From: Nemertoderma westbladi
Lineage: Eukaryota; Animalia; Xenacoelomorpha
Assembly (NCBI GenBank): GCA_032718475.1
Contig: JAUCBJ010001403.1
Location: 1 to 63,675 of the forward strand
DNA: 63,675 nucleotides
Reading direction: 5' to 3'
Shown: positions 5,916 through 30,196 of the stretch, piece after piece
Numbering within the stretch: the first letter of the stretch is position 1
Layout of the letters: the number at the start of each line of letters is the position of its first letter
The notes under the pieces: generated by a model
The model's database searches: none
What the model was told of the DNA's origin: nothing
The model's input: only the letters and a program-made list of their open reading frames with translations
Made by a program: the position numbers and the translations under genes

Positions 5916-6182
5916 CTCGGGGGACATGAATATCGACTTTAAACCCAACCCACCTACCAACCAATCAATCCATCACTGGACATGACCCAACTAATAAAAT
6001 ATACAGATTACTGTGAAATGTTATTATTTCATAAATGTATAATAGTTTAAATTCACTTAAATTCAAGCTTTTAACACAAAAGGTGTAAATCAAATTTACA
6101 AGAGAATAAACTATTATGTTAAATTATTATTCTATGTAGTTACCATAACTACGAGTTAGCAACATGGCCACTACAACATCGA

Positions 6183-6188
6183 TTTAAT
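6183..6188 (-). promoter_or_regulatory. Candidate RPLP0 polyadenylation signal (ATTAAA)
   Basis: TTTAAT on +, about 77 nt past the RPLP0 stop codon. Confidence 0.4.
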
Positions 6189-6264
6189 ATCGATACCAAC
6201 CAAACAACATTCATGGAATATCGATGTACCCGGAACATATTGGGCCGACAACAATCAACCCCGA

Positions 6265-6629
6265 CTAGTCGAACAAACCGAATCCCATGTCATCGTCGCT
6301 CTCTTCCTCAGGCTCCGGCTCGGGTTTCTTCTCCTCGGCGGCAGCTCCGGTAGCCCCGGCTACGGGGGCCGCGGCTATAAAGGCCGACGGGTCCGCCAGG
6401 TAGGCGAGCATCGCTTCTGCTTCCGGGAAGGCGTAGTCGGTCTCGGCTGCGACGGCGAGGACGTTCTTAAAGGCGTTGGCGATGGAGTGGGGGGCGGAAG
6501 CGACGGTCGGGTAGCCGATCTCTAGGGAGACAGCCGCCACGTTGGCGACACCCGCCATAAACATGTTGCGGATGTCCGCGTCACTGATGTCGAGAATCAT
6601 AGGGCTGAATATAGAGCCCTGGTCGTAAA
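6265..6629 (-). CDS. RPLP0: 60S acidic ribosomal protein P0 (uL10), coding exon 5 (last)
   Basis: Acceptor ttctgtttgtttcAG at 6631-6630; phase 1 joins exon 4 to give IYDQGSIFSPMILDIS...GYPTVASAPHSIANAFKNVLAVA...EEESDDDMGFGLFD*, the canonical P-protein C-terminus; 365 nt. Confidence 0.96.
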
Positions 6630-9600
6630 CTGAAACAAACAGAATGTCCAACGTTAGTGATGGAATATAGAGCCCTGGTCGTAAACTGAAACAAACAGAA
6701 TGTCCACTGTTAGTGATGGAATATAGAGCCCTGGTCGTAAACTGAAACAAACAGAATGTCCAATGTTAGTGATGGAATATAGAGCCCTGGTCGTAAACTG
6801 AAACAAACAGAATGTCCAACGTTAGTGATGGAATATAGAGCCCTGGTCGTAAACTGAAACAAACAGAATGTCCAATGTTAGTGATGGAATATAGAGCCCT
6901 GGTCGTAAACTGAAACAAACAGAATGTCCAATGTTAGTGATGGAATATAGAGCCCTGGTCGTAAACTGAAACAAACAGAATGTCCAATGTTAGTGATGGA
7001 ATATAGAGCCCTGGTCGTAAACTGAAACAAACAGAATGTCCAATGTTAGTGATGGAATATAGAGCCCTGGTCGTAAACTGAAACAAACAGAATGTCCAAC
7101 GTTAGTGATGGAATATAGAGCCCTGGTCGTAAACTGAAACAAACAGAATGTCCAATGTTAGTGATGGAATATAGAGCCCTGGTCGTAAACTGAAACAAAC
7201 AGAATGTCCAACGTTAGTGATGGAATATAGAGCCCTGGACGTAAACTGAAACAAACAGAATGTCCAACGTTAGTGATGGAATATAGAGCCCTGGTCGTAA
7301 ACTGAAACAAACAGAATGTCCAATGGTAGTGAGGGAATATAGAGCCCTGGTCGTAAACTGAAACAAACAGAATGTCCAATGTTAGTGATGGAATATAGAG
7401 CCCTGGTCGTAAACTGAAACAAACAGAATGTCCAATGTTAGTGATGGAATATAGAGCCCTGATCGTAAACTGAAACAAACAGAATGTCCAATGTTAGTGA
7501 TGGAATATAGAGCCCTGATCGTAAACTGAAACAAACAGAATGTCCAATGTTAGTGATGGAATATAGAGCCCTGATCGTAAACTGAAACAAACAGAATGTC
7601 CAACGTTAGTGATGGAATATAGAGCCCTGGTCGTAAACTGAAACAAACAGAATGTCCAACGTTAGTGATGGAATATAGAGCCCTGGTCGTAAACTGAAAC
7701 AAACAGAATGTCCAACGTTAGTGATGGAATATAGAGCCCTGGTCGTAAACTGAAACAAACAGAATGTCCAACGTTAGTGATGGAATATAGAGCCCTGGTC
7801 GTAAACTGAAACAAACAGAATGTCCAATGTTAGTGATGGAATATAGAGCCCTGATCGTAAACTGAAACAAACAGAATGTCCAACGTTAGTGATGGAATAT
7901 AGAGCCCTGGTCGTAAACTGAAACAAACAGAATGTCCAACGTTAGTGATGGAATATAGAGCCCTGGTCGTAAACTGAAACAAACAGAATGTCCAATGTTA
8001 GTGATGGAATATAGAGCCCTGGTCGTAAACTGAAACAAACAGAATGTCCAACGTTAGTGATGGAATATAGAGCCCTGGTCGTAAACTGAAACAAACAGAA
8101 TGTCCAACGTTAGTGATGGAATATAGAGCCCTGGTCGTAAACTGAAACAAACAGAATGTCCAACGTTAGTGATGGAATATAGAGCCCTGGTCGTAAACTG
8201 AAACAAACAGAATGTCCAACGTTAGTGATGGAATATAGAGCCCTGATCGTAAACTGAAACAAACAGAATGTCCAACGTTAGTGATGGAATATATAGACCT
8301 GGTCGTAAACTGAAACAAACAGAATGTCCACTGTTAGTGATGGAATATAGAGCCCTGGTCGTAAACTGAAACAAACAGAATGTCCAACGTTAGTGATGGA
8401 ATATAGAGCCCTGGTCGTAAACTGAAACAAACAGAATGTCCAACGTTAGTGATGGAATATAGAGCCCTGGTCGTAAACTGAAACAAACAGAATGTCCAAC
8501 GTTAGTGATGGAATATAGAGCCCTGGTCGTAAACTGAAACAAACAGAATGTCCAATGTTAGTGATGGAATATAGAGCCCTGATCGTAAACTGAAACAAAC
8601 AGAATGTCCAACGTTAGTGATGGAATATAGAGCCCTGGTCGTAAACTGAAACAAACAGAATGTCCAACGTTAGTGATGGAATATAGAGCCCTGGTCGTAA
8701 ACTGAAACAAACAGAATGTCCAACGTTAGTGATGGAATATAGAGCCCTGGTCGTAAACTGAAACAAACAGAATGTCCAATGTTAGTGATGGAATATAGAG
8801 CCCTGGTCGTAAACTGAAACAAACAGAATGTCCACTGTTAGTGATGGAATATAGAGCCCTGGTCGTAAACTGAAACAAACAGAATGTCCAACGTTAGTGA
8901 TGGAATATAGAGCCCTGGTCGTAAACTGAAACAAACAGAATGTCCAATGTTAGTGATGGAATATAGAGCCCTGGTCGTAAACTGAAACAAACAGAATGTC
9001 CAATGTTAGTGATGGAATATATAGACCTGGTCGTAAACTGAAACAAACAGAATGTCCAATGTTAGTGATGGAATATAGAGCCCTGGTCGTAAACTGAAAC
9101 AAACAGAATGTCCAACGTTAGTGATGGAATATAGAGCCCTGGTCGTAAACTGAAACAAACAGAATGTCCAATGTTAGTGATGGAATATAGAGCCCTGGTC
9201 GTAAACTGAAACAAACAGAATGTCCAATGTTAGTGATGGAATATAGAGCCCTGGTCGTAAACTGAAACAAACAGAATGTCCAATGTTAGTGATGGAATAT
9301 AGAGCCCTGGTCGTAAACTGAAACAAACAGAATGTCCAATGTTAGTGATGGAATATAGAGCCCTGATCGTAAACTGAAACAAACAGAATGTCCAACGTTA
9401 GTGATGGAATATAGAGCCCTGGTCGTAAACTGAAACAAACAGAATGTCCAACGTTAGTGATGGAATATAGAGCCCTGGTCGTAAACTGAAACAAACAGAA
9501 TGTCCAATGGTAGTGATGGAATATAGAGCCCTGGTCGTAAACTGAAACAAACAGAATGTCCAATGTTAGTGATGGAATATAGAGCCCTGGTCGTAAACTG

Positions 9601-12600
9601 AAACAAACAGAATGTCCAATGTTAGTGATGGAATATAGAGCCCTGGTCGTAAACTGAAACAAACAGAATGTCCAATGTTAGTGATGGAATATAGAGCCCT
9701 GGTCGTAAACTGAAACAAACAGAATGTCCAATGTTAGTGATGGAATATAGAGCCCTGGTCGTAAACTGAAACAAACAGAATGTCCAATGTTAGTGATGGA
9801 ATATATAGACCTGGTCGTAAACTGAAACAAACAGAATGTCCAATGTTAGTGATGGAATATAGAGCCCTGGTCGTAAACTGAAACAAACAGAATGTCCAAC
9901 GTTAGTGATGGAATATAGAGCCCTGGTCGTAAACTGAAACAAACAGAATGTCCAACGTTAGTGATGGAATATAGAGCCCTGGTCGTAAACTGAAACAAAC
10001 AGAATGTCCAACGTTAGTGATGGAATATAGAGCCCTGATCGTAAACTGAAACAAACAGAATGTCCAACGTTAGTGATGGAATATAGAGCCCTGGTCGTAA
10101 ACTGAAACAAACAGAATGTCCAACGTTAGTGATGGAATATAGAGCCCTGGTCGTAAACTGAAACAAACAGAATGTCCACTGTTAGTGATGGAATATAGAG
10201 CCCTGGTCGTAAACTGAAACAAACAGAATGTCCAACGTTAGTGATGGAATATAGAGCCCTGGTCGTAAACTGAAACAAACAGAATGTCCAACGTTAGTGA
10301 TGGAATATAGAGCCCTGGTCGTAAACTGAAACAAACAGAATGTCCACTGTTAGTGATGGAATATAGAGCCCTGGTCGTAAACTGAAACAAACAGAATGTC
10401 CAACGTTAGTGATGGAATACAAAGCCCTGGTCGTAAACTGAAACAAACAGAATGTCCAACGTTAGTGATGGAATATAGAGCCCTGGTCGTAAACTGAAAC
10501 AAACAGAATGTCCAACGTTAGTGATGGAATATAGAGCCCTGGTCGTAAACTGAAACAAACAGAATGTCCAATGTTAGTGATGGAATATAGAGCCCTGGTC
10601 GTAAACTGAAACAAACAGAATGTCCAACGTTAGTGATGGAATATAGAGCCCTGGTCGTAAACTGAAACAAACAGAATGTCCAATGTTAGTGATGGAATAT
10701 AGAGCCCTGATCGTAAACTGAAACAAACAGAATGTCCAATGTTAGTGATGGAATATAGAGCCCTGGTCGTAAACTGAAACAAACAGAATGTCCAATGTTA
10801 GTGATGGAATATAGAGCCCTGGTCGTAAACTGAAACAAACAGAATGTCCAATGTTAGTGATGGAATATAGAGCCCTGGTCGTAAACTGAAACAAACAGAA
10901 TGTCCAACGTTAGTGATGGAATATAGAGCCCTGGTCGTAAACTGAAACAAACAGAATGTCCAATGTTAGTGATGGAATATAGAGCCCTGGTCGTAAACTG
11001 AAACAAACAGAATGTCCAACGTTAGTGATGGAATATAGAGCCCTGGTCGTAAACTGAAACAAACAGAATGTCCAACGTTAGTGATGGAATATAGAGCCCT
11101 GGTCGTAAACTGAAACAAACAGAATGTCCAATGTTAGTGATGGAATATAGAGCCCTGGTCGTAAACTGAAACAAACAGAATGTCCAATGTTAGTGATGGA
11201 ATATAGAGCCCTGGTCGTAAACTGAAACAAACAGAATGTCCAATGTTAGTGATGGAATATAGAGCCCTGGTCGTAAACTGAAACAAACAGAATGTCCAAC
11301 GTTAGTGATGGAATATAGAGCCCTGGTCGTAAACTGAAACAAACAGAATGTCCAACGTTAGTGATGGAATATAGAGCCCTGGTCGTAAACTGAAACAAAC
11401 AGAATGTCCACTGTTAGTGATGGAATATAGAGCCCTGGTCGTAAACTGAAACAAACAGAATGTCCAACGTTAGTGATGGAATATAGAGCCCTGGTCGTAA
11501 ACTGAAACAAACAGAATGTCCAATGTTAGTGATGGAATATAGAGCCCTGGTCGTAAACTGAAACAAACAGAATGTCCAACGTTAGTGATGGAATATAGAG
11601 CCCTGGTCGTAAACTGAAACAAACAGAATGTCCAATGTTAGTGATGGAATATATAGACCTGGTCGTAAACTGAAACAAACAGAATGTCCAACGTTAGTGA
11701 TGGAATATAGAGCCCTGATCGTAAACTGAAACAAACAGAATGTCCAATGTTAGTGATGGAATATAGAGCCCTGGTCGTAAACTGAAACAAACAGAATGTC
11801 CACTGTTAGTGATGGAATATAGAGCCCTGGTCGTAAACTGAAACAAACAGAATGTCCAATGTTAGTGATGGAATATAGAGCCCTGGTCGTAAACTGAAAC
11901 AAACAGAATGTCCAATGTTAGTGATGGAATATAGAGCCCTGGTCGTAAACTGAAACAAACAGAATGTCCAACGTTAGTGATGGAATATAGAGCCCTGGTC
12001 GTAAACTGAAACAAACAGAATGTCCAATGTTAGTGATGGAATATAGAGCCCTGGTCGTAAACTGAAACAAACAGAATGTCCACTGTTAGTGATGGAATAT
12101 AGAGCCCTGGTCGTAAACTGAAACAAACAGAATGTCCAACGTTAGTGATGGAATATAGAGCCCTGGTCGTAAACTGAAACAAACAGAATGTCCAATGTTA
12201 GTGATGGAATATAGAGCCCTGGTCGTAAACTGAAACAAACAGAATGTCCAATGTTAGTGATGGAATATAGAGCCCTGGTCGTAAACTGAAACAAACAGAA
12301 TGTCCAATGTTAGTGATGGAATATAGAGCCCTGGTCGTAAACTGAAACAAACAGAATGTCCAACGTTAGTGATGGAATATAGAGCCCTGGTCGTAAACTG
12401 AAACAAACAGAATGTCCAACGTTAGTGATGGAATACAAAGCCCTGGTCGTAAACTGAAACAAACAGAATGTCCAATGTTAGTGATGGAATATAGAGCCCT
12501 GGTCGTAAACTGAAACAAACAGAATGTCCAACGTTAGTGATGGAATATAGAGCCCTGGTCGTAAACTGAAACAAACAGAATGTCCAATGTTAGTGATGGA

Positions 12601-15600
12601 ATATAGAGCCCTGGTCGTAAACTGAAACAAACAGAATGTCCAATGTTAGTGATGGAATATAGAGCCCTGGTCGTAAACTGAAACAAACAGAATGTCCAAT
12701 GTTAGTGATGGAATATAGAGCCCTGGTCGTAAACTGAAACAAACAGAATGTCCAATGTTAGTGATGGAATATAGAGCCCTGGTCGTAAACTGAAACAAAC
12801 AGAATGTCCAATGTTAGTGATGGAATATAGAGCCCTGGTCGTAAACTGAAACAAACAGAATGTCCAATGTTAGTGATGGAATATAGAGCCCTGGTCGTAA
12901 ACTGAAACAAACAGAATGTCCAATGTTAGTGATGGAATATAGAGCCCTGGTCGTAAACTGAAACAAACAGAATGTCCAACGTTAGTGATGGAATACAGAG
13001 CCCTGGTCGTAAACTGAAACAAACAGAATGTCCAATGTTAGTGATGGAATATAGAGCCCTGGTCGTAAACTGAAACAAACAGAATGTCCAACGTTAGTGA
13101 TGGAATATAGAGCCCTGGTCGTAAACTGAAACAAACAGAATGTCCAATGTTAGTGATGGAATATAGAGCCCTGGACGTAAACTGAAACAAACAGAATGTC
13201 CAATGTTAGTGATGGAATATAGAGCCCTGGTCGTAAACTGAAACAAACAGAATGTCCAATGTTAGTGATGGAATATAGAGCCCTGGTCGTAAACTGAAAC
13301 AAACAGAATGTCCAATGTTAGTGATGGAATATAGAGCCCTGGTCGTAAACTGAAACAAACAGAATGTCCAATGTTAGTGATGGAATATAGAGCCCTGGTC
13401 GTAAACTGAAACAAACAGAATGTCCAATGTTAGTGATGGAATATAGAGCCCTGGTCGTAAACTGAAACAAACAGAATGTCCAATGTTAGTGATGGAATAT
13501 AGAGCCCTGGTCGTAAACTGAAACAAACAGAATGTCCAACGTTAGTGATGGAATATAGAGCCCTGGACGTAAACTGAAACAAACAGAATGTCCAACGTTA
13601 GTGATGGAATATAGAGCCCTGGTCGTAAACTGAAACAAACAGAATGTCCAATGTTAGTGATGGAATATAGAGCCCTGGTCGTAAACTGAAACAAACAGAA
13701 TGTCCACTGTTAGTGATGGAATATAGAGCCCTGGTCGTAAACTGAAACAAACAGAATGTCCAATGTTAGTGATGGAATATAGAGCCCTGGTCGTAAACTG
13801 AAACAAACAGAATGTCCAACGTTAGTGATGGAATATAGAGCCCTGGACGTAAACTGAAACAAACAGAATGTCCAATGTTAGTGATGGAATATAGAGCCCT
13901 GGTCGTAAACTGAAACAAACAGAATGTCCAACGTTAGTGATGGAATATAGAGCCCTGGACGTAAACTGAAACAAACAGAATGTCCAACGTTAGTGATGGA
14001 ATATAGAGCCCTGGACGTAAACTGAAACAAACAGAATGTCCAATGTTAGTGATGGAATATAGAGCCCTGGTCGTAAACTGAAACAAACAGAATGTCCAAC
14101 GTTAGTGATGGAATATAGAGCCCTGGACGTAAACTGAAACAAACAGAATGTCCAATGTTAGTGATGGAATATAGAGCCCTGGTCGTAAACTGAAACAAAC
14201 AGAATGTCCAACGTTAGTGATGGAATATAGAGCCCTGGTCGTAAACTGAAACAAACAGAATGTCCAATGTTAGTGATGGAATATAGAGCCCTGGTCGTAA
14301 ACTGAAACAAACAGAATGTCCAATGTTAGTGATGGAATATAGAGCCCTGATCGTAAACTGAAACAAACAGAATGTCCAACGTTAGTGATGGAATATAGAG
14401 CCCTGGTCGTAAACTGAAACAAACAGAATGTCCAATGTTAGTGATGGAATATAGAGCCCTGGTCGTAAACTGAAACAAACAGAATGTCCAATGTTAGTGA
14501 TGGAATATAGAGCCCTGGTCGTAAACTGAAACAAACAGAATGTCCAATGTTAGTGATGGAATATAGAGCCCTGGTCGTAAACTGAAACAAACAGAATGTC
14601 CAATGTTAGTGATGGAATATAGAGCCCTGGTCGTAAACTGAAACAAACAGAATGTCCAATGTTAGTGATGGAATATAGAGCCCTGGTCGTAAACTGAAAC
14701 AAACAGAATGTCCAATGTTAGTGATGGAATATAGAGCCCTGGTCGTAAACTGAAACAAACAGAATGTCCAACGTTAGTGATGGAATATAGAGCCCTGGAC
14801 GTAAACTGAAACAAACAGAATGTCCAACGTTAGTGATGGAATATAGAGCCCTGGTCGTAAACTGAAACAAACAGAATGTCCAATGTTAGTGATGGAATAT
14901 AGAGCCCTGGTCGTAAACTGAAACAAACAGAATGTCCAACGTTAGTGATGGAATATAGAGCCCTGGACGTAAACTGAAACAAACAGAATGTCCAATGTTA
15001 GTGATGGAATATAGAGCCCTGGTCGTAAACTGAAACAAACAGAATGTCCAACGTTAGTGATGGAATATAGAGCCCTGGTCGTAAACTGAAACAAACAGAA
15101 TGTCCAATGTTAGTGATGGAATATAGAGCCCTGGTCGTAAACTGAAACAAACAGAATGTCCAATGTTAGTGATGGAATATAGAGCCCTGATCGTAAACTG
15201 AAACAAACAGAATGTCCAACGTTAGTGATGGAATATAGAGCCCTGGTCGTAAACTGAAACAAACAGAATGTCCAATGTTAGTGATGGAATATAGAGCCCT
15301 GGTCGTAAACTGAAACAAACAGAATGTCCAATGTTAGTGATGGAATATAGAGCCCTGGTCGTAAACTGAAACAAACAGAATGTCCAACGTTAGTGATGGA
15401 ATATAGAGCCCTGGTCGTAAACTGAAACAAACAGAATGTCCAATGTTAGTGATGGAATATAGAGCCCTGGTCGTAAACTGAAACAAACAGAATGTCCAAT
15501 GTTAGTGATGGAATATAGAGCCCTGGTCGTAAACTGAAACAAACAGAATGTCCAATGTTAGTGATGGAATATAGAGCCCTGGTCGTAAACTGAAACAAAC

Positions 15601-17197
15601 AGAATGTCCAACGTTAGTGATGGAATATAGAGCCCTGGTCGTAAACTGAAACAAACAGAATGTCCAATGTTAGTGATGGAATATAGAGCCCTGGTCGTAA
15701 ACTGAAACAAACAGAATGTCCAATGTTAGTGATGGAATATAGAGCCCTGGTCGTAAACTGAAACAAACAGAATGTCCAATGTTAGTGATGGAATATAGAG
15801 CCCTGGTCGTAAACTGAAACAAACAGAATGTCCAATGTTAGTGATGGAATATAGAGCCCTGGTCGTAAACTGAAACAAACAGAATGTCCAACGTTAGTGA
15901 TGGAATATAGAGCCCTGGTCGTAAACTGAAACAAACAGAATGTCCAATGTTAGTGATGGAATATAGAGCCCTGGTCGTAAACTGAAACAAACAGAATGTC
16001 CAATGTTAGTGATGGAATATAGAGCCCTGGTCGTAAACTGAAACAAACAGAATGTCCAATGTTAGTGATGGAATATAGAGCCCTGGTCGTAAACTGAAAC
16101 AAACAGAATGTCCAACGTTAGTGATGGAATATAGAGCCCTGGACGTAAACTGAAACAAACAGAATGTCCAATGTTAGTGATGGAATATAGAGCCCTGGTC
16201 GTAAACTGAAACAAACAGAATGTCCAACGTTAGTGATGGAATATAGAGCCCTGGTCGTAAACTGAAACAAACAGAATGTCCAATGTTAGTGATGGAATAT
16301 AGAGCCCTGGTCGTAAACTGAAACAAACAGAATGTCCAACGTTAGTGATGGAATATAGAGCCCTGGTCGTAAACTGAAACAAACAGAATGTCCAATGTTA
16401 GTGATGGAATATAGAGCCCTGGTCGTAAACTGAAACAAACAGAATGTCCAATGTTAGTGATGGAATATAGAGCCCTGATCGTAAACTGAAACAAACAGAA
16501 TGTCCAACGTTAGTGATGGAATATAGAGCCCTGGTCGTAAACTGAAACAAACAGAATGTCCAATGGTAGTGAGGGAATATAGAGCCCTGGTCGTAAACTG
16601 AAACAAACAGAATGTCCAATGTTAGTGATGGAATATAGAGCCCTGGTCGTAAACTGAAACAAACAGAATGTCCACTGTTAGTGATGGAATATAGAGCCCT
16701 GGTCGTAAACTGAAACAAACAGAATGTCCAATGTTAGTGATGGAATATAGAGCCCTGGTCGTAAACTGAAACAAACAGAATGTCCAATGTTAGTGATGGA
16801 ATATAGAGCCCTGATCGTAAACTGAAACAAACAGAATGTCCAACGTTAGTGATGGAATATAGAGCCCTGGTCGTAAACTGAAACAAACAGAATGTCCAAT
16901 GTTAGTGATGGAATATAGAGCCCTGGTCGTAAACTGAAACAAACAGAATGTCCAATGTTAGTGATGGAATATAGAGCCCTGGACGTAAACTGAAACAAAC
17001 AGAATGTCCAACGTTAGTGATGGAATATAGAGCCCTGGTCGTAAACTGAAACAAACAGAATGTCCAATGTTAGTGATGGAATATAGAGCCCTGGACGTAA
17101 ACTGAAACAAACAGAATGTCCAACGTTAGTGATGGAATATAGAGCCCTGGTCGTAAACTGAAACAAACAGAATGTCCAATGTTAGTGATGGAATATA
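6607..17197. repeat. 56-bp tandem array, 189 units, each containing the RPLP0 intron-4 branch point, 3' splice site and first 23 nt of exon 5
   Basis: GAATATA at 6607 and 17191 are 10584 = 189 x 56 apart. Sense (-) unit: CATCACTAAC(A/G)TTGGACATTCTGTTTGTTTCAG|TTTACGACCAGGGCTCTATATTC. Confidence 0.97.
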
Positions 17198-17386
17198 TAT
17201 TCTTCATATAATGAATAAAGAATATATTCTTCAACATTTACTTTGGAGATCCATTGAACTATAAATTGATATTGTTTTGGTTTCCTATCTCCCGGGTTAC
17301 ATATAATAAATTACATTGTTATGAACTGACTGGAAGTTATGAACTAAAAATCTTTGCCGAGGGAATGTAAATAAAAATCATCAACA

Positions 17387-17440
17387 TCAGAATTGCAGGA
17401 TTATTTCATAAAAAGTCAAAGTATCTTGATTTATCATCAC
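17387..17440 (-). ncRNA. SNORD96: Box C/D snoRNA, SNORD96-like (5.8S rRNA Gm75 guide), copy 1 (box C to box D)
   Basis: Minus strand GTGATGA...TTGA...TAATCCTGCAATT-CTGA closed by 10-bp stem AATCATCAAC/GTTGATGATT; guide pairs with 5.8S AAUUGCAGGA and D+5 selects the G, as in vertebrate SNORD96. Confidence 0.88.
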
Positions 17441-17624
17441 CAGTTGATGATTCTAATTAACTACTAATTACACGAAATGGGGCCTTCGCGCAGCACTGCA
17501 TAATTTTATGATATTTTATGTCCGGTGTAACCAATGGGAATGCACCATTAACATAATAAATAATATTGTAGTTGATTAACTGTTTAAAACACAATGGGAT
17601 TAATGGACAACAAAATTCCGTTAC

Positions 17625-17691
17625 TCAGATATTAAAACATAGACATTAAAATAATCATTTAGGTCATTCGACGAGACACAAATATCATCAT
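17625..17691 (-). ncRNA. Box C/D snoRNA family B (unassigned), copy 1
   Basis: Minus strand ATGATGA...ATGA (D') cctaa ATGATT (C')...CTATGTTTTAATAT-CTGA, closed by stem TCTGTTAT/GTAACGGA. Confidence 0.75.
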
Positions 17692-18240
17692 TATAACAGA
17701 GATATGAGCTTACAATGAAAACAACATATTGTAATTAGTCAAAATTTACTCTAAATATCTACCATATAACCAAAATTATGCGTATTATTGGGGTTTTAAA
17801 TTCAATGACAAATATTTTGAGTCCGTACCGGGACTGCCAATAAAGAATACCTTGCAGAGCAGTCGCCAAGGAAACTGACTATTATATAGACACCTAACTG
17901 ACTCTACAACACATAAGGGGGGAGGGGGCGGGGGGGGGGGGGGGGGGGGGGTAAACATTTTTATTCTATCGTGTGTCGAATTTAATGGAGAATTCAAATC
18001 TGCAAGAAGATTTCTCATATCTTTTCTCAAACTCAAGTTATTACCCAAAACATAAGAGCTAGTCTGACTTATGAAAAGCCTTCGAGCAGCACTATATTTT
18101 AAAATTGTACGGGGCCCTTTTCATAAAAAAAGGCTCTCACGGTACAGATATGAATAAAATATCTAAAATAGCGGGAAGATTTAAATTGTTTCTTAAACTT
18201 TAAACACCCATATCTCAGAATGACGTTTTTTCATGAAAAA

Positions 18241-18520
18241 GGCTATTTCTCCGCCAATTTTAATTGAAATGAGTTGAAATTTGGTACACTTGTTAAGAAT
18301 ACATTTCTCCATACTTCTTCTGAACAAATTTGGTTGGAAATGACCTGGCGCCTTTTTATATCAAAAAGGCCCAAAAAGCCGTTTATGGGGCCTTTTTGTT
18401 ATAAAAAGGCTCCAGAGCATTTGAGGCAAAATTTGTTCAGAAGAATTGGATACAGGGTTCTTCTGAACTTATATTCCAAATTTCGACAAATTTCAACAAA
18501 TATTGGTGGCGAAATAGCCC
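18241..18520. mobile_element. Palindromic MITE/foldback-like element inside the 1.75-kb unit (present in each full unit)
   Basis: Nested inverted arms: GGCTATTTCTCCGCCAAT / ATTGGTGGCGAAATAGCC, TTCTTCTGAACAAATTT / AAATTTGTTCAGAAGAA, AAAAAGGCCC / GGGCCTTTTT. Confidence 0.65.
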
Positions 18521-19138
18521 TTCGGCGCAAAAAGGCACTTTTGGCCATTACGGAGCCATTTTGGGGCCAATTTTAAAAATATTTGGCTTGGTTGTTTAGA
18601 AGTACAAAAAATAATTTTTACCCAATATTAGGGTCCCGAGACACAAAAATGTGAGGTTTAAATTTTGGGGTGCTACCCCCCCCCCTTAAGGGGAGTCATA
18701 AATATAATAAAATTGTTTCATAAATTGGCTCAGATAAATTTGGATTGTTGGGAACGAAAAGTTTCTTCAAAGTAAAAAAGAACTCAAAGCGAGCTGAGAT
18801 TATCATCATAGCCAAAACTCAATCAAATAATATTTACACAATAAAACTAAGAACTTCACAGCCATTTCAATGCATCTGTAAAATTGTATGTTGGTTTATC
18901 ATTTTTAAATTATATTAAATTTTAACATAACAACAACTTTATACCTCACAGAAACCAAAGTTCACTAATTATAGAATATTCTTCAACATTTACTTTGGAG
19001 ATCCATTGAACTATAAATTGATATTGTTTTGGTTTCCTATCTCCCGGGTTACATATAATAAATTACATTGTTATGAACTGACTGGAAGTTATGAACTAAA
19101 AATCTTAGCCGAGGGAATGTAAATAAAAATCATCAACA

Positions 19139-19192
19139 TCAGAATTGCAGGATTATTTCATAAAAAGTCAAAGTATCTTGATTTATCATCAC
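19139..19192 (-). ncRNA. SNORD96: SNORD96-like snoRNA, copy 2
   Basis: Same boxes, guide and stem as copy 1. Confidence 0.85.
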
Positions 19193-19376
19193 CAGTTGAT
19201 GATTCTAATTAACTACTAATTACACGAAATGGGGCCTTCGCGCAGCACTGCATAATTTTATGATATTTTATGTCCGGTGTAACCAATGGGAATGCACCAT
19301 TAACATAATAAATAATATTGTAGTTGATTAACTGTTTAAAACACAATGGGATTAATGGACAACAAAATTCCGTTAC

Positions 19377-19443
19377 TCAGATATTAAAACATAGACATTA
19401 AAATAATCATTTAGGTCATTCGACGAGACACAAATATCATCAT
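19377..19443 (-). ncRNA. C/D snoRNA family B, copy 2
   Basis: Same boxes and stem as copy 1. Confidence 0.72.
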
Positions 19444-20894
19444 TATAACAGAGATATGAGCTTACAATGAAAACAACATATTGTAATTAGTCAAAATTTA
19501 CTCTAAATATCTACCATATAACCAAAATTATGCGTATTATTGGGGTTTTAAATTCAATGACAAATATTTTGAGTCCGTACCGGGACTGCCAATAAAGAAT
19601 ACCTTGCAGAGCAGTCGCCAAGGAAACTGACTATTATATAGACACCTAACTGACTCTACAACACATAAGGGGGGAGGGGGGGCGGGGGGGGGGGGGGGGG
19701 GGGTAAACTTTTCTTATTCTATCGTGTGTCGAATTTAATGGAGAATTCAAATCTGCAAGAAGATTTCTCATATCTTTTCTCAAACTCAAGTTATTACCCA
19801 AAACATAAGAGCTAGTCTGATTTATGAAAAGCCTTCGAGCAGCACTATATTTTAAAATTGTACGGGGCCCTTTTCATAAAAAAAGGCTCTCACGGTACAG
19901 ATATGAATAAAATATCTAAAATAGCGGGAAGATTTAAATTGTTTCTTAAACTTTAAACACCCATATCTCAGAATGACGTTTTTTCATGAAAAAGGCTATT
20001 TCTCCGCCAATTTTAATTGAAATGAGTTGAAATTTGGTACACTTGTTAAGAATACATTTCTCCATACTTCTTCTGAACAAATTTGGTTGGAAATGACCTG
20101 GCGCCTTTTTATATCAAAAAGGCCCAAAAAGCCCTTTATGGGGCCTTTTTGTTATAAAAAGGCTCCAGAGCATTTGAGGCAAAATTTGTTCAGAAGAATT
20201 GGATACAGGGTTCTTCTGAACTTATATTCCAAATTTCGACAAATTTCAACAAATATTGGTGGCGAAATAGCCCTTCGGCGCAAAAAGGCACTTTTGGCCA
20301 TTACGGAGCCATTTTGGGGCCAATTTTAAAAATATTTGGCTTGGTTGTTTAGAAGTACAAAAAATAATTTTTACCCAATATTAGGGTCCCGAGACACAAA
20401 AATGTGAGGTTTAAATTTTGGGGTGCTACCCCCCCCCCCCCTTAAGGGGAGTCATAAATATAATAAAATTGTTTCATAAATTGGCTCAGATAAATTTGGA
20501 TTGTTGGGAACGAAAAGTTTCTTCAAAGTAAAAAAGAACTCAAAGCGAGCTGAGATTATCATCATAGCCAAAACTCAATCAAATAATATTTACACAATAA
20601 AACTAAGAACTTCACAGCCATTTCAATGCATCTGTAAAATTGTATGTTGGTTTATCATTTTTAAATTATATTAAATTTTAACATAACAACAACTTTATAC
20701 CTCACAGAAACCAAAGTTCACTAATTATAGAATATTCTTCAACATTTACTTTGGCGATCCATTGAACTATAAATTGATATTGTTTTGGTTTCCTATCTCC
20801 CGGGTTACATATAATAAATTACATTGTTATGAACTGACTGGAAGTTATGAACTAAAAATCTTAGCCGAGGGAATGTAAATAAAAATCATCAACA

Positions 20895-20948
20895 TCAGAA
20901 TTGCAGGATTATTTCATAAAAAATCAAAGTATCTTGATTTATCATCAC
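20895..20948 (-). ncRNA. SNORD96: SNORD96-like snoRNA, copy 3
   Basis: Same boxes, guide and stem. Confidence 0.85.
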
Positions 20949-21132
20949 CAGTTGATGATTCTAATTAACTACTAATTACACGAAATGGGGCCTTCGCGCA
21001 GCACTGCATAATTTTATGATATTTTATGTCCGGTGTAACCAATGGGAATGCACCATTAACATAATAAATAATATTGTAGTTGATTAACTGTTTAAAACAC
21101 AATGGGATTAATGGACAACAAAATTCCGTTAC

Positions 21133-21199
21133 TCAGATATTAAAACATAGACATTAAAATAATCATTTAGGTCATTCGACGAGACACAAATATCATCAT
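21133..21199 (-). ncRNA. C/D snoRNA family B, copy 3
   Basis: Same boxes and stem. Confidence 0.72.
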
Positions 21200-22658
21200 T
21201 ATAACAGAGATATGAGCTTACAATGAAAACAACATATTGTAATTAGTCAAAATTTACTCTAAATATCTACCATATAACCAAAATTATGCGTATTATTGGG
21301 GTTTTAAATTCAATGACAAATATTTTGAGTCCGTACCGGGACTGCCAATAAAGAATACCTTGCAGAGCAGTCGCCAAGGAAACTGACTATTATATAGACA
21401 CCTAACTGACTCTACAACACATAAGGGGGGAGGGGGCGGGGGGGGGTGGGGTGGGTAAATTTTTCTTATTCTATCGTGTGTCGAATTTAATGGAGAATTC
21501 AAATCTGCAAGAAGATTTCTCAAATATTTTCTCAAACTCAAGTTATTACCCAAAACATAAGAGCTAAAACATAAGAGCTAGTCTGATTCATGAAAAGCCT
21601 TCGAGCAGCACTATATTTTAAAATTGTACGGGACCCTTTTCATAAAAAAAAGGCTCTCACGGTACAGATATGAATAAAATAGCTAAAATAGCGGGAAGAT
21701 TTAAATTGTTTCTTAAACTTTAAACACCCATATCTAAGAATGACGTTTTTTCATGAAAAAGGCTATTTCTCCGCCAATTTTAATTGAAATGAGTTGAAAT
21801 TTGGTACACTTGTTAAGAATACATTTCTCCATACTTCTTCTGAACAAATTTGGTTGGAAATGACCTGGCGCCTTTTTATATCAAAAAGGCCCAAAAAGTC
21901 GTTTATGGGGCCTTTTTGTTATAAAAAGGCTCCAGAGCATTTGAGGCAAAATTTGTTCAGAAGAATTGGATACAGGGTTCTTCTGAACTTATATTCCAAA
22001 TTTCGACAAATTTCAACAAATATTGGTGGCGAAATAGCCCTTCGGCGCAAAAAGGCACTTTTGGCCATTACGGAGCCATTTTGGGGCCAATTTTAAAAAT
22101 AGTTGGCTTGGTTGTTTAGAAGTACAAAAAATAATTTTTACCCAATATTAGGGTCCCGAGACACAAAAATGTGAGGTTTAAATTTCGGAGTGCTACCCCC
22201 CCCCCTTAAGGGGAGTCATAAATATAATAAAATTGTTTCATAAATTGGCTCAGATAAATTTGGATTGTTGGGAACGAAAAGTTTCTTCAAAGTAAAAAAG
22301 AACTCAAAGCGAGCTGAGATTATCATCATAGCCAAAACTCAATCAAATAATATTTACACAATAAAACTAAGAACTTCACAGCCATTTCAATGCATCTGTA
22401 AAATTGTATGTTGGTTTATCATTTTTAAATTATATTAAATTTTAACATAACAACAACTTTATACCTCACAGAAACCAAAGTTCACTAATTATAGAATATT
22501 CTTCAACATTTACTTTGGAGATCCATTGAACTATAAATTGATATTGTTTTGGTTTCCTATCTCCCGGGTTACATATAATAAATTACATTGTTATGAACTG
22601 ACTGGAAGTTATGAACTAAAAATCTTAGCCGAGGGAATGTAAATAAAAATCATCAACA

Positions 22659-22712
22659 TCAGAATTGCAGGATTATTTCATAAAAAATCAAAGTATCTTG
22701 ATTTATCATCAC
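22659..22712 (-). ncRNA. SNORD96: SNORD96-like snoRNA, copy 4
   Basis: Same boxes, guide and stem. Confidence 0.85.
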
Positions 22713-22896
22713 CAGTTGATGATTCTAATTAACTACTAATTACACGAAATGGGGCCTTCGCGCAGCACTGCATAATTTTATGATATTTTATGTCCGGTGT
22801 AACCAATGGGAATGCACCATTAACATAATAAATAATATTGTAGTTGATTAACTGTTTAAAACACAATGGGATTAATGGACAACAAAATTCCGTTAC

Positions 22897-22963
22897 TCAG
22901 ATATTAAAACATAGACATTAAAATAATCATTTAGGTCATTCGACGAGACACAAATATCATCAT
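22897..22963 (-). ncRNA. C/D snoRNA family B, copy 4
   Basis: Same boxes and stem. Confidence 0.72.
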
Positions 22964-24429
22964 TATAACAGAGATATGAGCTTACAATGAAAACAACATA
23001 TATGGTAATTAGTCAAAATTTACTCTAAATATCTACCATATAACCAAAATTATGCGTATTATTGGGGTTTTAAATTCAATGACAAATATTTTGAGTCCGT
23101 ACCGGGACTGCCAATAAAGAATACCTTGCAGAGCAGTCGCCAAGGAAACTGACTATTATATAGACACCTAACTGACTCTACAACACATAAGGGGGGAGGG
23201 GGAGGGGGCGGGGGGGGGGGGGGGTGGGTAAATTTTTCTTATTCTATCGTGTGTCGAATTTAATGGAGAATTCAAATCTGCAAGAAGATTTCTCAAATAT
23301 TTTCTCAAACTCAAGTTATTACCCAAAACATAAGAGCTAAAACATAAGAGCTAGTCTGATTTATGGAAAGCCTTCGAGCAGCACTATATTTTAAAATTGT
23401 ACGGGACCCTTTTCATAAAAAAAAGGCTCTCACGGTACAGATATGAATAAAATAGCTAAAATAGCGGGAAGATTTAAATTGTTTCTTAAACTTTAAACAC
23501 CCATATCTAAGAATGACGTTTTTTCATGAAAAAGGCTATTTCTCCGCCAATTTTAATTGAAATGAGTTGAAATTTGGTACACTTGTTAAGAATACATTTC
23601 TCCATACTTCTTCTGAACAAATTTGGTTGGAAATGACCTGGCGCCGTTTTATATCAAAAAGGCCCAACAAGCCCTTTATGGGGCCTTTTTGTTATAAAAA
23701 GGCTCCAGAGCATTTGAGGCAAAATTTGTTCAGAAGAATTGGATACAGGGTTCTTCTGAACTTATATTCCAAATTTCGACAAATTTCAACAAATATTGGT
23801 GGCGAAATAGCCCTTCGGCGCAAAAAGGCACTTTTGGCCATTACGGAGCCATTTTGGGGCCAATTTTAAAAATATTTGGTTTGGTTGTTTAGAAGTACAA
23901 AAAATAATTTTTACCCAATATTAGGGTCCCGAGACACAAAAATGTGAGGTTTAAATTTTGGGGTGCTACCCCCCCCTTAAGGGGAGTCACAAATATAATA
24001 AAATTGTTTCAAAAATTGGCTCAGATAAATTTGGATTGTTGGGAACGAAAAGTTTCTTCAAAGTAAAAAAGAACTCAAAGCGAGCTGAGATTATCATCAT
24101 AGCCAAAACTCAATCAAATAATATTTACACAATAAAACTAAGAACTTCACAGCCATTTCAATGCATCTGTAAAATTGTATGTTGGTTTATCATTTTTAAA
24201 TTATATTAAATTTTAACATAACAACAACTTTATACCTCACAGAAACCAAAGTTCACTAATTATAGAATATTCTTCAACATTTACTTTGGCGATCCATTGA
24301 ACTATAAATTGATATTGTTTTGGTTTCCTATCTCCCGGGTTACATATAATAAATTACATTGTTATGAACTGACTGGAAGTTATGAACTAAAAATCTTTGC
24401 CGAGGGAATGTAAATAAAAATCATCAACA

Positions 24430-24483
24430 TCAGAATTGCAGGATTATTTCATAAAAAGTCAAAGTATCTTGATTTATCATCAC
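24430..24483 (-). ncRNA. SNORD96: SNORD96-like snoRNA, copy 5
   Basis: Same boxes, guide and stem. Confidence 0.85.
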
Positions 24484-24667
24484 CAGTTGATGATTCTAAT
24501 TAACTACTAATTACACGAAATGGGGCCTTCGCGCAGCACTGCATAATTTTATGATATTTTATGTCCGGTGTAACCAATGGGAATGCACCATTAACATAAT
24601 AAATAATATTGTAGTTGATTAACTGTTTAAAACACAATGGGATTAGTGGACAACAAAATTCCGTTAC

Positions 24668-24734
24668 TCAGATATTAAAACATAGACATTAAAATAATCA
24701 TTTAGGTCATTCGACGAGACAAAAATATCATCAT
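24668..24734 (-). ncRNA. C/D snoRNA family B, copy 5
   Basis: Same boxes; one substitution in the D'-side guide. Confidence 0.7.
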
Positions 24735-25916
24735 TATAACAGAGATATGAGCTTACAATGAAAACAACATATATGGTAATTAGTCAAAATTTACTCTAAA
24801 TATCTACCATATAACCAAAATTATGCGTATTATTGGGGTTTTAAATTCAATGACAAATATTTTACTATATTTTAAAATTGTACGGGGCCCTTTTCATAAA
24901 AAAAGGCTCTTACGGTACAGATATGAATAAAATATCTAAAATAGCGGGAAGATTTAAATGGTTTCTTAAACTTTAAACACCCAATATCTCAGAATGACGT
25001 TTTTTCATGAATAATGCTATTTCTCCGCCAATTTTAATTGAAATGAGTTGAAATTTGGTACACTTGTTAAGAATACATTTCTCCATACTTCTTCTGAACA
25101 AATTTGGTTGGAAATGACCTGGCGCCTTTTTATATCAAAAAGGCCCAAAAAGCCGTTTATGGGGCCTTTTTGTTATAAAAAGGCTCCAGAGCATTTGAGG
25201 CAAAATTTGTTCAGAAGAATTTGATACAGGGTTCTTCTGAACTTATATTCCAAATTTCGACAAATTTCAACAAATATTGGTGGCGAAATAGCCCTTCGGC
25301 GCAAAAAGGCACTTTTGGCCATTACGAAGCCATTTTGGGGCCAATTTTAAAAATATTTGGCTTGGTTGTTTAGAAGTACAAAAAATAATTTTTACCCAAT
25401 ATTAGGGTCCCGAGACACAAAAATGTGAGGTTTAAATTTTGGGGTGCTACCCCCCGCCCCCCCTTAAGGGGAGTCATAAATATAATAAAATTGTTTCATA
25501 AATTGGCTCAGATAAATTTGGATTGTTGGGAACGAAAAGTTTCTTCAAAGTAAAAAATAACTCAAAGCGAGCTGAGATTATCATCATAGCCAAAACTCAA
25601 TCAAATAATATTTACACAATAAAACTAAGAACTTCACAGCCATTTCAATGCATCTGTAAAATTGTATGTTGGTTTATCACTTTTAAATTATATTAAATTT
25701 TAACATAACAACAACTTTATACCTCACAGAAACCAAAGTTCACTAATTATAGAATATTCTTCAACATTTACTTTGGAGATCCATTGAACTATAAATTGAT
25801 ATTGTTTTGGTTTCCTATCTCCCGGGTTACATATAATAAATTACATTGTTATGAACTGACTGGAAGTTATGAACTAAAAATCTTTGCCGAGGGAATGTAA
25901 ATAAAAATCATCAACA

Positions 25917-25971
25917 TCAGAATTGCAGGATTATTTCATAAAAAAATCAAAGTATCTTGATTTATCATCAC
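25917..25971 (-). ncRNA. SNORD96: SNORD96-like snoRNA, copy 6
   Basis: Same boxes, guide and stem; one extra internal base. Confidence 0.85.
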
Positions 25972-26155
25972 CAGTTGATGATTCTAATTAACTACTAATT
26001 ACACGAAATGGGGCCTTCGCGCAGCACTGCATAATTTTATGATATTTTATGTCCGGTGTAACCAATGGGAATGCACCATTAACATAATAAATAATATTGT
26101 AGTTGATTAACTGTTTAAAACACAATGGGATTAATGGACAACAAAATTCCGTTAC

Positions 26156-26222
26156 TCAGATATTAAAACATAGACATTAAAATAATCATTTAGGTCATTC
26201 GACGAGACACAAATATCATCAT
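26156..26222 (-). ncRNA. C/D snoRNA family B, copy 6
   Basis: Same boxes and stem. Confidence 0.72.
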
Positions 26223-26741
26223 TATAACAGAGATATGAGCTTACAATGAAAACAACATATTGTAATTAGTCAAAATTTACTCTAAATATCTACCATATAA
26301 CCAAAATTATGCGTATTATTGGGGTTTTAAATTCAATGACAAATATTTTGAGTCCGTACCGGGACTGCCAATAAAGAATACCTTGCAGAGCAGTCGCCAA
26401 GGAAACTGACTATTATATAGACACCTAACTGACTCTACAACACATAAGGGGGGAAGGGGCGGGGGGGGGGGTAAATTTTTCTTATTCTATCGTGTGTCGA
26501 ATTTAATGGAGAATTCAAATCTGCAAGAAGATTTCTCATATCTTTTCTCAAACTCAAGTTATTACCCAAAACATAAGAGCTAGTCTGACTTATGAAAAGC
26601 CTTCGCGCAGCACTGCATAATTTTATGATATTTTATGTCCGGTGTAACCAATGGGAATGAACCATTAACATAATAAATAATATTGTAGTTGAATAACTGT
26701 TTAAAACACAATGGGATTAGTGGACAACAAAATTCCGTTAC

Positions 26742-26808
26742 TCAGATATTAAAACATAGACATTAAAATAATCATTTAGGTCATTCGACGAGACACAAAT
26801 ATCATCAT
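26742..26808 (-). ncRNA. C/D snoRNA family B, copy 7 (in rearranged sub-duplication)
   Basis: Same boxes and stem. Confidence 0.72.
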
Positions 26809-27213
26809 TATAACAGAGATATGAGCTTACAATGAAAACAACATATTGTAATTAGTCAAAATTTACTCTAAATATCTATCTACCATATAACCAAAATTAT
26901 GCGTATTATTGGGGTTTTAAATTCAATGACAAATATTTTACTATATTTTAAAATTGTACGGGGCCCTTTTCTTAAAAAAGGCTCTCACGGTACAGATATG
27001 AATAAAATATCTAAAATAGCGGGAAGATTTAAATTGTTTCTTAAACTTTAAACTCCCAATATCTCAGAATGACGTTTTTTCATGAAAAAGGCTATTTCTC
27101 CGCCAATTTTAATTGAAATGAGTTGAAATTTGGTACACTTGTTAAGAATACATTTCTCCATACTTCTTCTGAACAAATTTGGTTGGAAATGACCTGGCCA
27201 TAAAGCAGCAACA

Positions 27214-27266
27214 TCAGAATTGCAGGATTATTTCATTAAAGTCAAAGTATCTTGATTTATCATCAC
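27214..27266 (-). ncRNA. SNORD96: SNORD96-like snoRNA, copy 7 (outside the tandem repeat)
   Basis: Core nearly identical, but flanks differ and form a different stem AGCAAC/GTTGCT. Confidence 0.88.
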
Positions 27267-27929
27267 AGGTTGCTTGTAAGCGGATTTTTACCTGCTAAAT
27301 CGCGTTCGTCCTTTACTCAATTCGCAATTCGTAATACATAAATAAGAATGATATAATATCATGAATAATGATAATCTCATATTTAAGAGATAGCAACATG
27401 TGATCGACTAGTACAGTAACAAAAGTAATCCTCCAATAGAAACGTCCCAATCAATCCCTAATTAATGTGTGACGTCACCCAAGCATCACCCAACGAAACT
27501 AATTATACCTACTTATATTGCACGTGTGAGGCGTGTGGTAATTAATACTCGTTAGTCACCCATTGCTAGCCTATGGATGGCTGCCCCATTATTGCTAGCC
27601 TATGGATGGATGGCTGCATGACTGGTTTGTATAACACTTATTGCTGCTATTAATAGCCATTGACATTATGGACTGTTTGAGTCCAAAACGATAATTCACG
27701 GATTTTATGACTGGGCGTTCAGCTTATTCTATTTTGTAAGGGCCCTTCCTGGATTTAATTCATTATTCAGTATGACATGCTGCAAACGTTTCCGACACTA
27801 GCAATTACAAGATAAGAGTTGGACCAGCCTGTGTACAATTTAATTATTCGGTCAGTCGTTTTATAGTAAACTTACACTTAGAAATCGTCGTAATTCTAAA
27901 GATTACTATAGACAAAATAATTCAGTTAT

Positions 27930-27996
27930 TCAGATATTAAAACATAGACATTAAAATAATCATTTAGGTCATTCGACGAGACACAAATATCATCAT
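27930..27996 (-). ncRNA. C/D snoRNA family B, copy 8 (outside the tandem repeat)
   Basis: Identical core in unrelated flanks, with an alternative stem TTCTGTTATT/AATAACTGAA. Confidence 0.78.
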
Positions 27997-28125
27997 AATA
28001 ACAGAATGTAATTAATTAGCCTTGCTGATATGGAATGAACACCAAAACTATTATAATTATCTTAACCTTAACTACCGAATATGTAACTAATAATGATATA
28101 ATAGTGATATTGTCATTGAACTGAA

Positions 28126-29850
28126 CAGCTTACACTACGACTACACACCGTAACCGCCAGCTTACCCTACGACTACACACCGTAACCGCCAGCTTACACT
28201 ACGACTACACACCGTAACCGCCAGCTTACCCTACGACTACACACCGTAACCGCCAGCTTACCCTACGACTACACACCGTAACCGCCAGCTTACACTACGA
28301 CTACACACCGTAACCGCCAGCTTACCCTACGACTACACACCGTAACCGCCAGCTTACACTACGACTACACACCGTAACCGCCAGCTTACACTACGACTAC
28401 ACACCGTAACCGCCAGCTTACCCTACGACTACACACCGTAACCGCCAGCTTACACTACGACTACACACCGTAACCACCAGCTTACCCTACGACTACACAC
28501 CGTAACCGCCAGCTTACACTACGACTACACACCGTAACCGCCAGCTTACACTACGACTACACACCGTAACCACCAGCTTACCCTACGACTACACACCGTA
28601 ACCGCCAGCTTACACTACGACTACACACCGTAACCGCCAGCTTACACTACGACTACACACCGTAACCACCAGCTTACCCTACGACTACACACCGTAACCG
28701 CCAGCTTACACTACGACTACACACCGTAACCGCCAGCTTACACTACGACTACACACCGTAACCACCAGCTTACCCTACGAATACACACCGTAACCGCCAG
28801 CTTACACTACGACTACACACCGTAACCGCCAGCTTACCCTACGACTACACACCGTAACCGCCAGCTTACACTACGACTACACAACGTAACCGCCAGCTTA
28901 CACTACGACTACACACCGTAACCGCCAGCTTACACTACGACTACACACCGTAACCGCCAGCTTACACTACGACTACACACCGTAACCACCAGCTTACCCT
29001 ACGACTACACACCGTAACCGCCAGCTTACACTACGACTACACACCGTAACCGCCAGCTTACACTACGACTACACACCGTAACCACCAGCTTACCCTACGA
29101 CTACACACCGTAACCACCAGCTTACCCTACGACTACACACCGTAACCGCCAACTTACACTACGACTACACACCGTAACCGCCAGCTTACACTACGACTAC
29201 ACACCGTAACCACCAGCTTACCCTACGAATACACACCGTAACCGCCAGCTTACACTACGACTACACACCGTAACCGCCAGCTTACACTACGACTACACAC
29301 CGTAACCGCCAGCTTACCCTACGACTACACACCGTAACCGCCAGCTTACACTACGACTACACACCGTAACCGCCAGCTTACACTACGACTACACACCGTA
29401 ACCGCCAGCTTACACTACGACTACACACCGTAACCGCCAGCTTACACTACGACTACACACCGTAACCGCCAGCTTACACTACGACTACACACCGTAACCG
29501 CCAGCTTACACTACGACTACACACCGTAACCGCCAGCTTACACTACGACTACACACCGTAACCGCCAGCTTACACTACGACTACACACCGTAACCGCCAG
29601 CTTACACTACGACTACACACCGTAACCGCCAGCTTACACTACGACTACACACCGTAACCGCCAGCTTACACTACGACTACACACCGTAACCGCCAGCTTA
29701 CACTACGACTACACACCGTAACCGCCAGCTTACCCTACGACTACACACCGTAACCGCCAGCTTACACTACGACTACACACCGTAACCGCCAGCTTACACT
29801 ACGACTACACACCGTAACCGCCAGCTTACACTGCGACTACACACCGTAAC
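28126..29850. repeat. 32-bp minisatellite, about 54 copies (CAGCTTAC[A/C]CTACGACTACACACCGTAACC[G/A]C)
   Basis: Period read directly (CTACACACCG at 28141 and 28173). Confidence 0.96.
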
Positions 29851-30142
29851 TGCACTAACAACACTGCGATAAATAGCAGAGACAATGCGAGAGAAATAAA
29901 GCGAATAGACAGACTAAGTAGTTTGTATCTATTAATATTCTACTTCACACAAACAACCCAACATAATTCCTCTACAAACCTATTAATAATAGCCACAATA
30001 ATTCAATTAGACCTGTATAGGACACCTTTACTATACAGGTACCCGCTCCACGTCTGGCACGTCTTGGCTATTCCAGAATTATCACACCACGCGCGCTATG
30101 GTGGGAGTTAGGTAATGATATTTTCGTGTACACATAACAACA

Positions 30143-30196
30143 TCAGAATTGCAGGATTATTTCATTTAAAGTCAAATTATATTTACTTATCATCAC
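30143..30196 (-). ncRNA. SNORD96: SNORD96-like snoRNA, copy 8 (diverged paralog)
   Basis: Boxes C, D' and D and the TCCTGCAATT guide intact, 5' half diverged; short CAACA/TGTTG stem. Confidence 0.85.

Follow-up and report, generated by a model that had tools for sequence, protein, structure and literature searches.

The window analysed here, a 63,675-nt stretch of genomic DNA from Nemertoderma westbladi (contig JAUCBJ010001403.1), carries on its minus strand what looks like a working, expressed RPLP0 gene (uL10, ribosomal protein P0), and the last intron of this gene ends in a long tandem array of copies of its own 3' splice site. PF00466, PF17777 and PF00428 matched three of the four exon pieces scanned, and the 36-aa piece of exon 4 had no match. 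When the five coding exons were joined by coordinates, they gave a single intact frame of 313 amino acids, with 68-72% full-length identity to the best P0 relatives among the 120 listed. The exons lie at 62289..62345 (exon 1, ATG at 62345), 61747..61922 (exon 2, PF00466), 60790..61024 (exon 3, PF17777), 30404..30512 (exon 4, 109 nt) and 6265..6629 (coding part of the last exon, PF00428), and exons 3 and 4 were also located by spliced contigs from sequencing runs; numbering counts coding exons only, so the last exon is exon 5. All introns are GT-AG, with lengths of 366, 722, 30,277 and 23,774 nt, and the last one (intron 4, 6630..30403) was placed by spliced contigs as well as exon joining. The 3' untranslated region (UTR) covers 5988..6264, its end being approximate and judged from the length of a spliced contig of run X5 and from the cover of run X3, which starts in bin 5981-6007 (runs are described below).

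Tandem Repeats Finder (TRF) called the array at 6607-17197 with a period of 56, 189.1 copies, 98% matches and no indels. A motif search gave 189 acceptor motifs on the minus strand at a spacing of exactly 56 nt, and the unit table placed the 189 units at 6607..17190, about 10.6 kb in all. Each unit combines the final 33 nt of the intron, which comprise branch point, pyrimidine tract and AG, with the initial 23 nt of the last RPLP0 exon. The real junction is formed by the unit at 6607-6662, with its AG at 6630..6631, its first exonic base at 6629 and the predicted branch point CACTAAC at 6653..6659, and the remaining 188 units, all upstream, are decoys. The tract plus AG, TTCTGTTTGTTTCAG, was intact in all 189 units, and the CACTAAC motif in 186, the other three having lost the presumed branch A. 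A preliminary description of this DNA, made from the sequence alone, had reported 189 acceptors in 56-bp units of branch point, acceptor and 23 nt of exon, and both TRF and the motif spacing bore this out. It had also taken the upstream units to match the true one from the branch point into the exon, which stands as near-identity but not as identity: 56 of the 188 decoys matched the true unit over the full 56 nt, and 155 carried the 23-nt exon stub unaltered by the unit table count. There were 15 unit types with a mean pairwise difference of 1.8%, and no higher-order repeat was found in the unit table. The GC content of the array was 40%, compared with 63% in the body of the last exon past the stub.

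The stub is followed by CAT, or in two units by CCT, and never by GT, so no donor closes it and the units are not tandem microexons. Each AG runs into TTTAC without a GT, and the units are thus not recursive splice sites either; the three GT contexts and the one GC per unit were all far from the donor consensus. Use of a decoy would bring a stop two codons past the stub, where the TAA of the next CACTAAC doubles as a stop codon, and would leave a protein of 202 amino acids (stop at codon 203) for 185 of the 188 decoys or 258 amino acids (stop at codon 259) for the other three, compared with 313 in P0. The C-terminal third that would be lost carries the P1/P2-binding and acidic tail region, and uL10 is essential.

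Acceptor use in transcripts and array length

Six of eight sequencing runs (X1-X6) could be aligned, and the other two (X7 and X8) contained almost no matching words. X1 and X2 (study P1) and X4 (study P3) were DNA-like, while X3, X5 and X6 were taken as RNA-like from their spliced contigs and exon-only cover; X5 bears the sample code of X1 and X2. A contig of X5 (1387 nt, depth 390) and one of X6 (983 nt, depth 6.9) both ran from exon 3 through exon 4 into exon 5 with the productive junction. Past exon 4, both carried the 30 letters of 6600-6629, and the decoy version of these letters (6656-6685) differs in the last seven transcribed ones, which marks the AG at 6630..6631 as the acceptor in use. 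The junction contig of X3 covered 38 nt of exon 4 and 22 nt of the exon that follows, and was too short to separate the true site from a decoy. The productive junction was therefore found in two of the three RNA-like runs, as presence only, and the contigs give no rate of decoy use. The preliminary description had argued that the cell must skip 10.5 kb of near-identical acceptors, and for steady-state molecules this holds, as the X5 and X6 contigs join the last acceptor; of the two junctions from exon 4 that it had proposed to tell apart, the productive one is that of these assembled contigs. The heavy mis-splicing that it had considered was not seen in the spliced contigs, which cannot exclude mis-splicing.

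In the main contigs of X3, X5 and X6, exon 4 was letter-identical to the window, and in the DNA run X4 it was present in unspliced form. X3 carried two forms of the 3' UTR, that of the window (depth 16,390) and that of X2 (11,938). The last exon was represented by one contig in each of the three DNA runs, plus a short match that reads as the tail shared with P1/P2, and neither a second exon-5 contig nor an intron-less RPLP0 was found in these runs, although contigs show presence and not absence. Two features of X3 were not used as evidence: at a last-exon contig depth above 10,000 the run kept variant contigs of depth 7-53, yet it had no cover at 6652-6700, and its cover ended in bin 6629-6655, where 926.9 × 27 corresponds to one base at a depth of about 25,000.

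The 3' UTR region (5950-6320) was polymorphic among runs, with insertions of 10-11 nt near 6030 and 6255-6260 and several substitutions, and these could be used to phase alleles with array length. X3 also held a contig of low depth (11) with intron-4 sequence (30151-30285) ending in an oligo-T loose end, that is, poly(A) on the sense strand, which may reflect rare 3' end formation within the intron or transcription of a related repeat at another locus.

The variation among units bears on whether the array could be an artefact. Nine columns of the unit were variable, every variant was common to several units and there were no singletons, and column 11 showed all four allele combinations with five other columns (four-gamete pattern). 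Identical units followed one another in runs of at most 7 (shuffled mean 6.2), and repeated blocks were at most 8 units long (shuffled mean 7.8), so there was no sign of block copying. Copying error would not give this pattern, whereas a repeat whose units are turned over by mutual exchange would. In the DNA runs, flank contigs stopped 30 nt into the array at depths of 14.8 (X1), 22 (X2) and 28.4 (X4), and unit contigs had depths of 421+284, 936+595 and 1361, respectively, which gave unit/flank ratios of 21, 31 and 48, or 33-73 after a rough correction for variant words; contig depth is a rough guide and not a copy number, because it counts majority words only (123 of 189 in this array). If either DNA study is left out as the possible source of the window, the other still shows the amplified unit. 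Because the variants are shared, the units are recombined and the unit stands at about 20-50 times flank depth in DNA runs of two studies, an artefact is unlikely. The array is real, the gene is expressed and splicing is correct at steady state. Individuals may differ in array length, with 189 units here versus depth ratios of 21-48 in the three runs, bearing in mind that these ratios are no copy numbers.

The window starts with a head-to-head inverted repeat of 26 nt (5-57) that is adapter-like, and which we take to be an amplification primer left in the assembly; it suggests a low-input amplified library.

Repeats and turnover in the gene

Of the 56 kb of this gene, 75% belongs to three minisatellite arrays, and the simplest view of the acceptor array is that it is one expansion among several in a repeat-rich gene and happened to straddle a junction. 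The seven letters at 17191..17197 (minus strand) are the same as those at 6607-6613, as expected if the first duplication took place between microhomologies 56 nt apart, so they probably seeded the array. Four of the five variable columns in the decoy stubs change the amino acid, and the stubs thus show no sign of coding constraint.

The second array consists of 54 copies of a 32-bp unit in intron 4 (28126..29850, minus strand, by TRF), and on the sense strand every unit carries GTAAG, a donor-like sequence. The 54 sites, of which 16 follow AGG, lie 0.6-2.3 kb behind the true exon-4 donor. Both ends of intron 4 are thus occupied by repeats, donor-like ones towards exon 4 and acceptor ones at the last exon. 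The 32-bp unit was also amplified in X4 (depth 567). A derivation of this unit from the exon-4 donor was tried and rejected: 7.7% of unrelated windows reached its score, as did 3.8% of shuffles, and the comparison was post hoc. The third array, called by TRF, is a satellite of about 980 units of 29/31 bp that fills intron 3 (30568..60190) and is bounded by a 34-bp direct repeat (30536-30569 and 60191-60224). Its 29-mer was very abundant in X4 (contig depth about 7000), and one X4 contig joined the left flank straight to the right flank (60225 on), with the array missing and the intron 622 nt long. The contig may represent an empty allele, in which case the array would be an insertion flanked by a target-site-like duplication; alternatively, the graph collapsed across the 34-bp repeat. 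When the extra copies are subtracted, intron 3 comes to about 0.6 kb and intron 4 to about 3 kb.

Next to the acceptor array, repeat comparison showed about six tandem copies of a 1.76-kb unit (17224..27200, right end approximate), four of them whole and 97-99% alike and followed by deleted copies, with nested internal inverted repeats and G-runs; the unit possibly holds a small transposon-like element. A small minisatellite (9 × 25 bp) lies at 737-967. At the 5' end of RPLP0, there is a good acceptor at 62396-62420, 51 nt 5' of the ATG, and by length the X6 and X5 contigs extend 54 and 168 nt upstream of the ATG, respectively, so the gene may have a non-coding first exon or receive a spliced leader. 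Tail to tail with RPLP0, on the plus strand (2843-4282), is an intron-less gene of the TMEM145/GPR180 family (479 aa, PF21892 and PF10192), for which identities of 29-35% were obtained.

Choice of the last acceptor

Our analysis makes it fairly probable that the array is a neutral "mirage", as junction-spanning minisatellites of amphioxus are called, and that only the last acceptor is used since the exon body and the poly(A) site stand behind it alone. Past +23 of the true site lie an exon body of 63% GC and a transcript end about 630 nt from the acceptor, and past each decoy lie a further branch point and tract. The splicing machinery likely ignores the 188 spare acceptors, since behind each there are only 23 nt of exon, followed by the intron sequence of the next unit, and the array itself is probably neutral. 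A 56-bp tandem duplication between the two 7-nt microhomologies seen at the array ends would have copied the junction, and unequal exchange and conversion, to which the four-gamete pattern points, would then have expanded and mixed the units, as elsewhere in the gene. By analogy with human CBS 844ins68, duplicated globin acceptors and mirages, the spliceosome would commit to an acceptor only after the terminal exon has been defined by factors bound to it and by the poly(A) machinery. Splicing of intron 4 would therefore wait for the polymerase to clear the array, and the acceptor adjoining the GC-rich exon body would win, which is the outcome seen in the contigs. The branch point of the next unit may also hinder each decoy. 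Of the routes named in the preliminary description, we infer that the best is exon definition combined with late removal of intron 4. RNA structure as a selector was rejected, as the predicted openness of the branch point, tract and AG was no lower in decoys (8 of 13 folded units).

Several points weigh against this reading. Distance to the poly(A) site alone cannot tell the true site from a decoy 56 nt upstream, and the precedents are mammalian or lancelet. Columns 13-39 of the unit (tract and AG) were invariant, with P = 0.024 by scan and 0.036 for tract plus AG alone. Neutrality does not predict such invariance, which hints weakly at constraint; it could be due to chance, or could arise because any unit may come to stand last. 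The figure of 189 copies comes from this assembly alone, the assembly opens with the adapter-like inverted repeat (1-57), and depth ratios in the other runs (33-73 corrected) point to fewer copies. The junction evidence consists of assembled contigs, so decoy use before decay stays outside it, and the RNA and the array length come from separate molecules that are unphased.

The decoys might instead be used substantially, the early-stop products being removed by nonsense-mediated decay (NMD) or nuclear decay so that the steady state looks clean. The 3' UTR of the decoy products would be extended by up to 11 kb, and array length could tune P0 output. The stop at codon 203 or 259, the decoy branch points and AGs predicted to be as open as the true ones, the invariance of tract and AG, and the transcription of the first decoy 10.5 kb ahead of the true site are all consistent with such leakage. 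Nematodes are known to splice ribosomal protein genes unproductively; autoregulation of such genes through alternative splicing coupled to NMD would show an alternative junction that carries an early stop and becomes commoner when NMD is blocked, and an early stop is predicted for the decoys. However, both long spliced contigs (X5 and X6) carried the productive junction only, decay would be expected to be weak for the nearest decoys, which add little to the 3' UTR and whose stop is marked by no downstream exon junction, and mirages are described as leaving splicing undisturbed in the accessible text of the published reports (PMC3087553, PMC3902484), so we consider this explanation possible but unlikely. 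We also doubt, at about half that weight, that the 188 acceptors form a working element which delays or diverts splicing of the last intron, or that the nascent RNA of this highly transcribed gene holds much U2AF/SF1/U2 at the locus, as the preliminary description had suggested; in the first case, repeat number would set P0 output via unproductive splicing, and in either case the invariant tract and AG would be under selection.

Equally doubtful is the idea that long-array alleles are silent or unproductive and that the source of the mRNA is either a short allele or a second copy that went unseen. As the array is collapsed in contigs, an allele with a single unit would give an identical graph, and sample S1 has more than one haplotype (the flanks of X1 and X2 differ). 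But the amplified unit was present in three of three DNA runs from two studies and in the window, both 3' UTR forms, including that of the window, had similar depth in X3, the DNA contigs, which show presence and not absence, held no second copy, and the coding frame is intact. Somewhat more doubtful still is a real array of tens of copies that was inflated to 189 by amplification or assembly, to which the inverted repeat at the window start and the ratios of 21-48 times flank depth could point; the array has no long identical runs, repeated blocks or singleton variants, and low ratios would also be obtained because contig depth counts majority words only (123 of 189) and minisatellites vary among individuals. 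Stepwise splicing, in which exon 4 would be joined to a decoy and then re-spliced down the array, seems very improbable to us. Recursive splicing exists in long introns, but the joint of exon 4 with a decoy rebuilds no GT, and if the GC served as donor, the joint would retain 12 extra nt that are absent from the observed junction. The re-splicing route of the preliminary description thus found no support, there being no usable donor in any unit or at any such joint.

The locus puts 3' splice-site choice to a natural stress test: the first of 188 near-identical rivals is transcribed 10.5 kb ahead of the true site, which has no donor downstream of it. Because the true site is transcribed last and lacks such a donor, a first-come-first-served selection would fail, and correct mRNA is made nonetheless. 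The unit variants are barcodes that tell which acceptor a read used, and together with possible differences in array length among individuals, nascent long reads could gauge how strictly terminal-exon definition restrains splicing and what this costs a housekeeping gene. The array also shows to what extent repeat turnover can invade a functional splice junction.

Comparison with known junction repeats

The preliminary description knew of no described case at this scale. As to scale this stands in the literature searched (main texts, mostly without subscription papers or the original Adh3 paper), where nothing near 189 copies was found, the cases being of 2-6 acceptor copies or up to 25 donor copies; as to kind it does not, since amphioxus mirages, CBS 844ins68 and the F7 intron 7 variable-number tandem repeat (VNTR) are known. 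The comparisons below hold for the accessible parts of the papers cited, and in that of PMC10078293 no junction-spanning acceptor array was found.

Donor-side junction VNTRs are described in F7 intron 7, IFI6 (6-16), CBS intron 13, LMNB2 and PDGF, with 5-25 copies, and those of IFI6 and CBS leak into the nearest two pseudo-sites (PMC1557585). In these, as in RPLP0, a minisatellite reiterates identical splice sites, the end unit is real and the exon-adjoining site is used, but they repeat 5' sites and the true one is transcribed first, which poses no timing problem, whereas in RPLP0 the true site comes last. In duplicated beta-globin 3' splice sites with an exon stub of 14, 55 or 205 nt, only the distal site was used in extract, splicing was inefficient, stub length had no effect and both sites could bind U2AF (PMC5389562). 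The upstream acceptor with its stub was skipped there as in RPLP0, but the substrates were artificial, with two sites. Human CBS 844ins68 is a natural duplication of an intron/exon junction with the distal site strongly favoured and normal mRNA (PMC2630376); it shares with RPLP0 the copied junction and the preferred distal site, but has two copies and an internal exon. The satellite-filled megabase introns of Drosophila Y testis genes (PMC11207136, PMC6508621) are likewise repeat-inflated in a working gene, and for them no copies of their own splice sites are mentioned in the accessible text.

The closest relatives are the amphioxus mirages, namely BflGb6, which is of acceptor type, Adh3, troponin C and PGBD5, for which no harm to splicing is reported; BflGb6 has 3-6 units of 150-160 bp with 81-100% identity before an internal exon (PMC3087553, PMC3902484). 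The RPLP0 unit lies across an exon-intron boundary (33 nt of intron plus 23 nt of exon, with the end unit as the real junction), and its 56 bp are within the mirage range of 10-160 bp (PMC3087553). Its splice signals are kept (tract and AG in 189 of 189 units, branch point in 186 of 189), regular mRNA is present in the X5 and X6 contigs, as presence only, and concerted evolution is seen in the 1.8% pairwise difference, the shared dispersed variants and the four-gamete pattern. Somatic instability has reportedly been observed for the Adh3 mirage. What the array has in common with these mirages is the tandem repetition of an intron's 3' end together with the beginning of the following exon, splice signals kept in many units, normal mRNA and homogenised units. 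Unlike BflGb6, it has 189 units of 98% identity over 10.6 kb before the terminal exon of a housekeeping gene, and its boundary unit is as homogenised as the others. Thus, the RPLP0 array is a known kind of repeat, and it is the largest instance in the literature searched.

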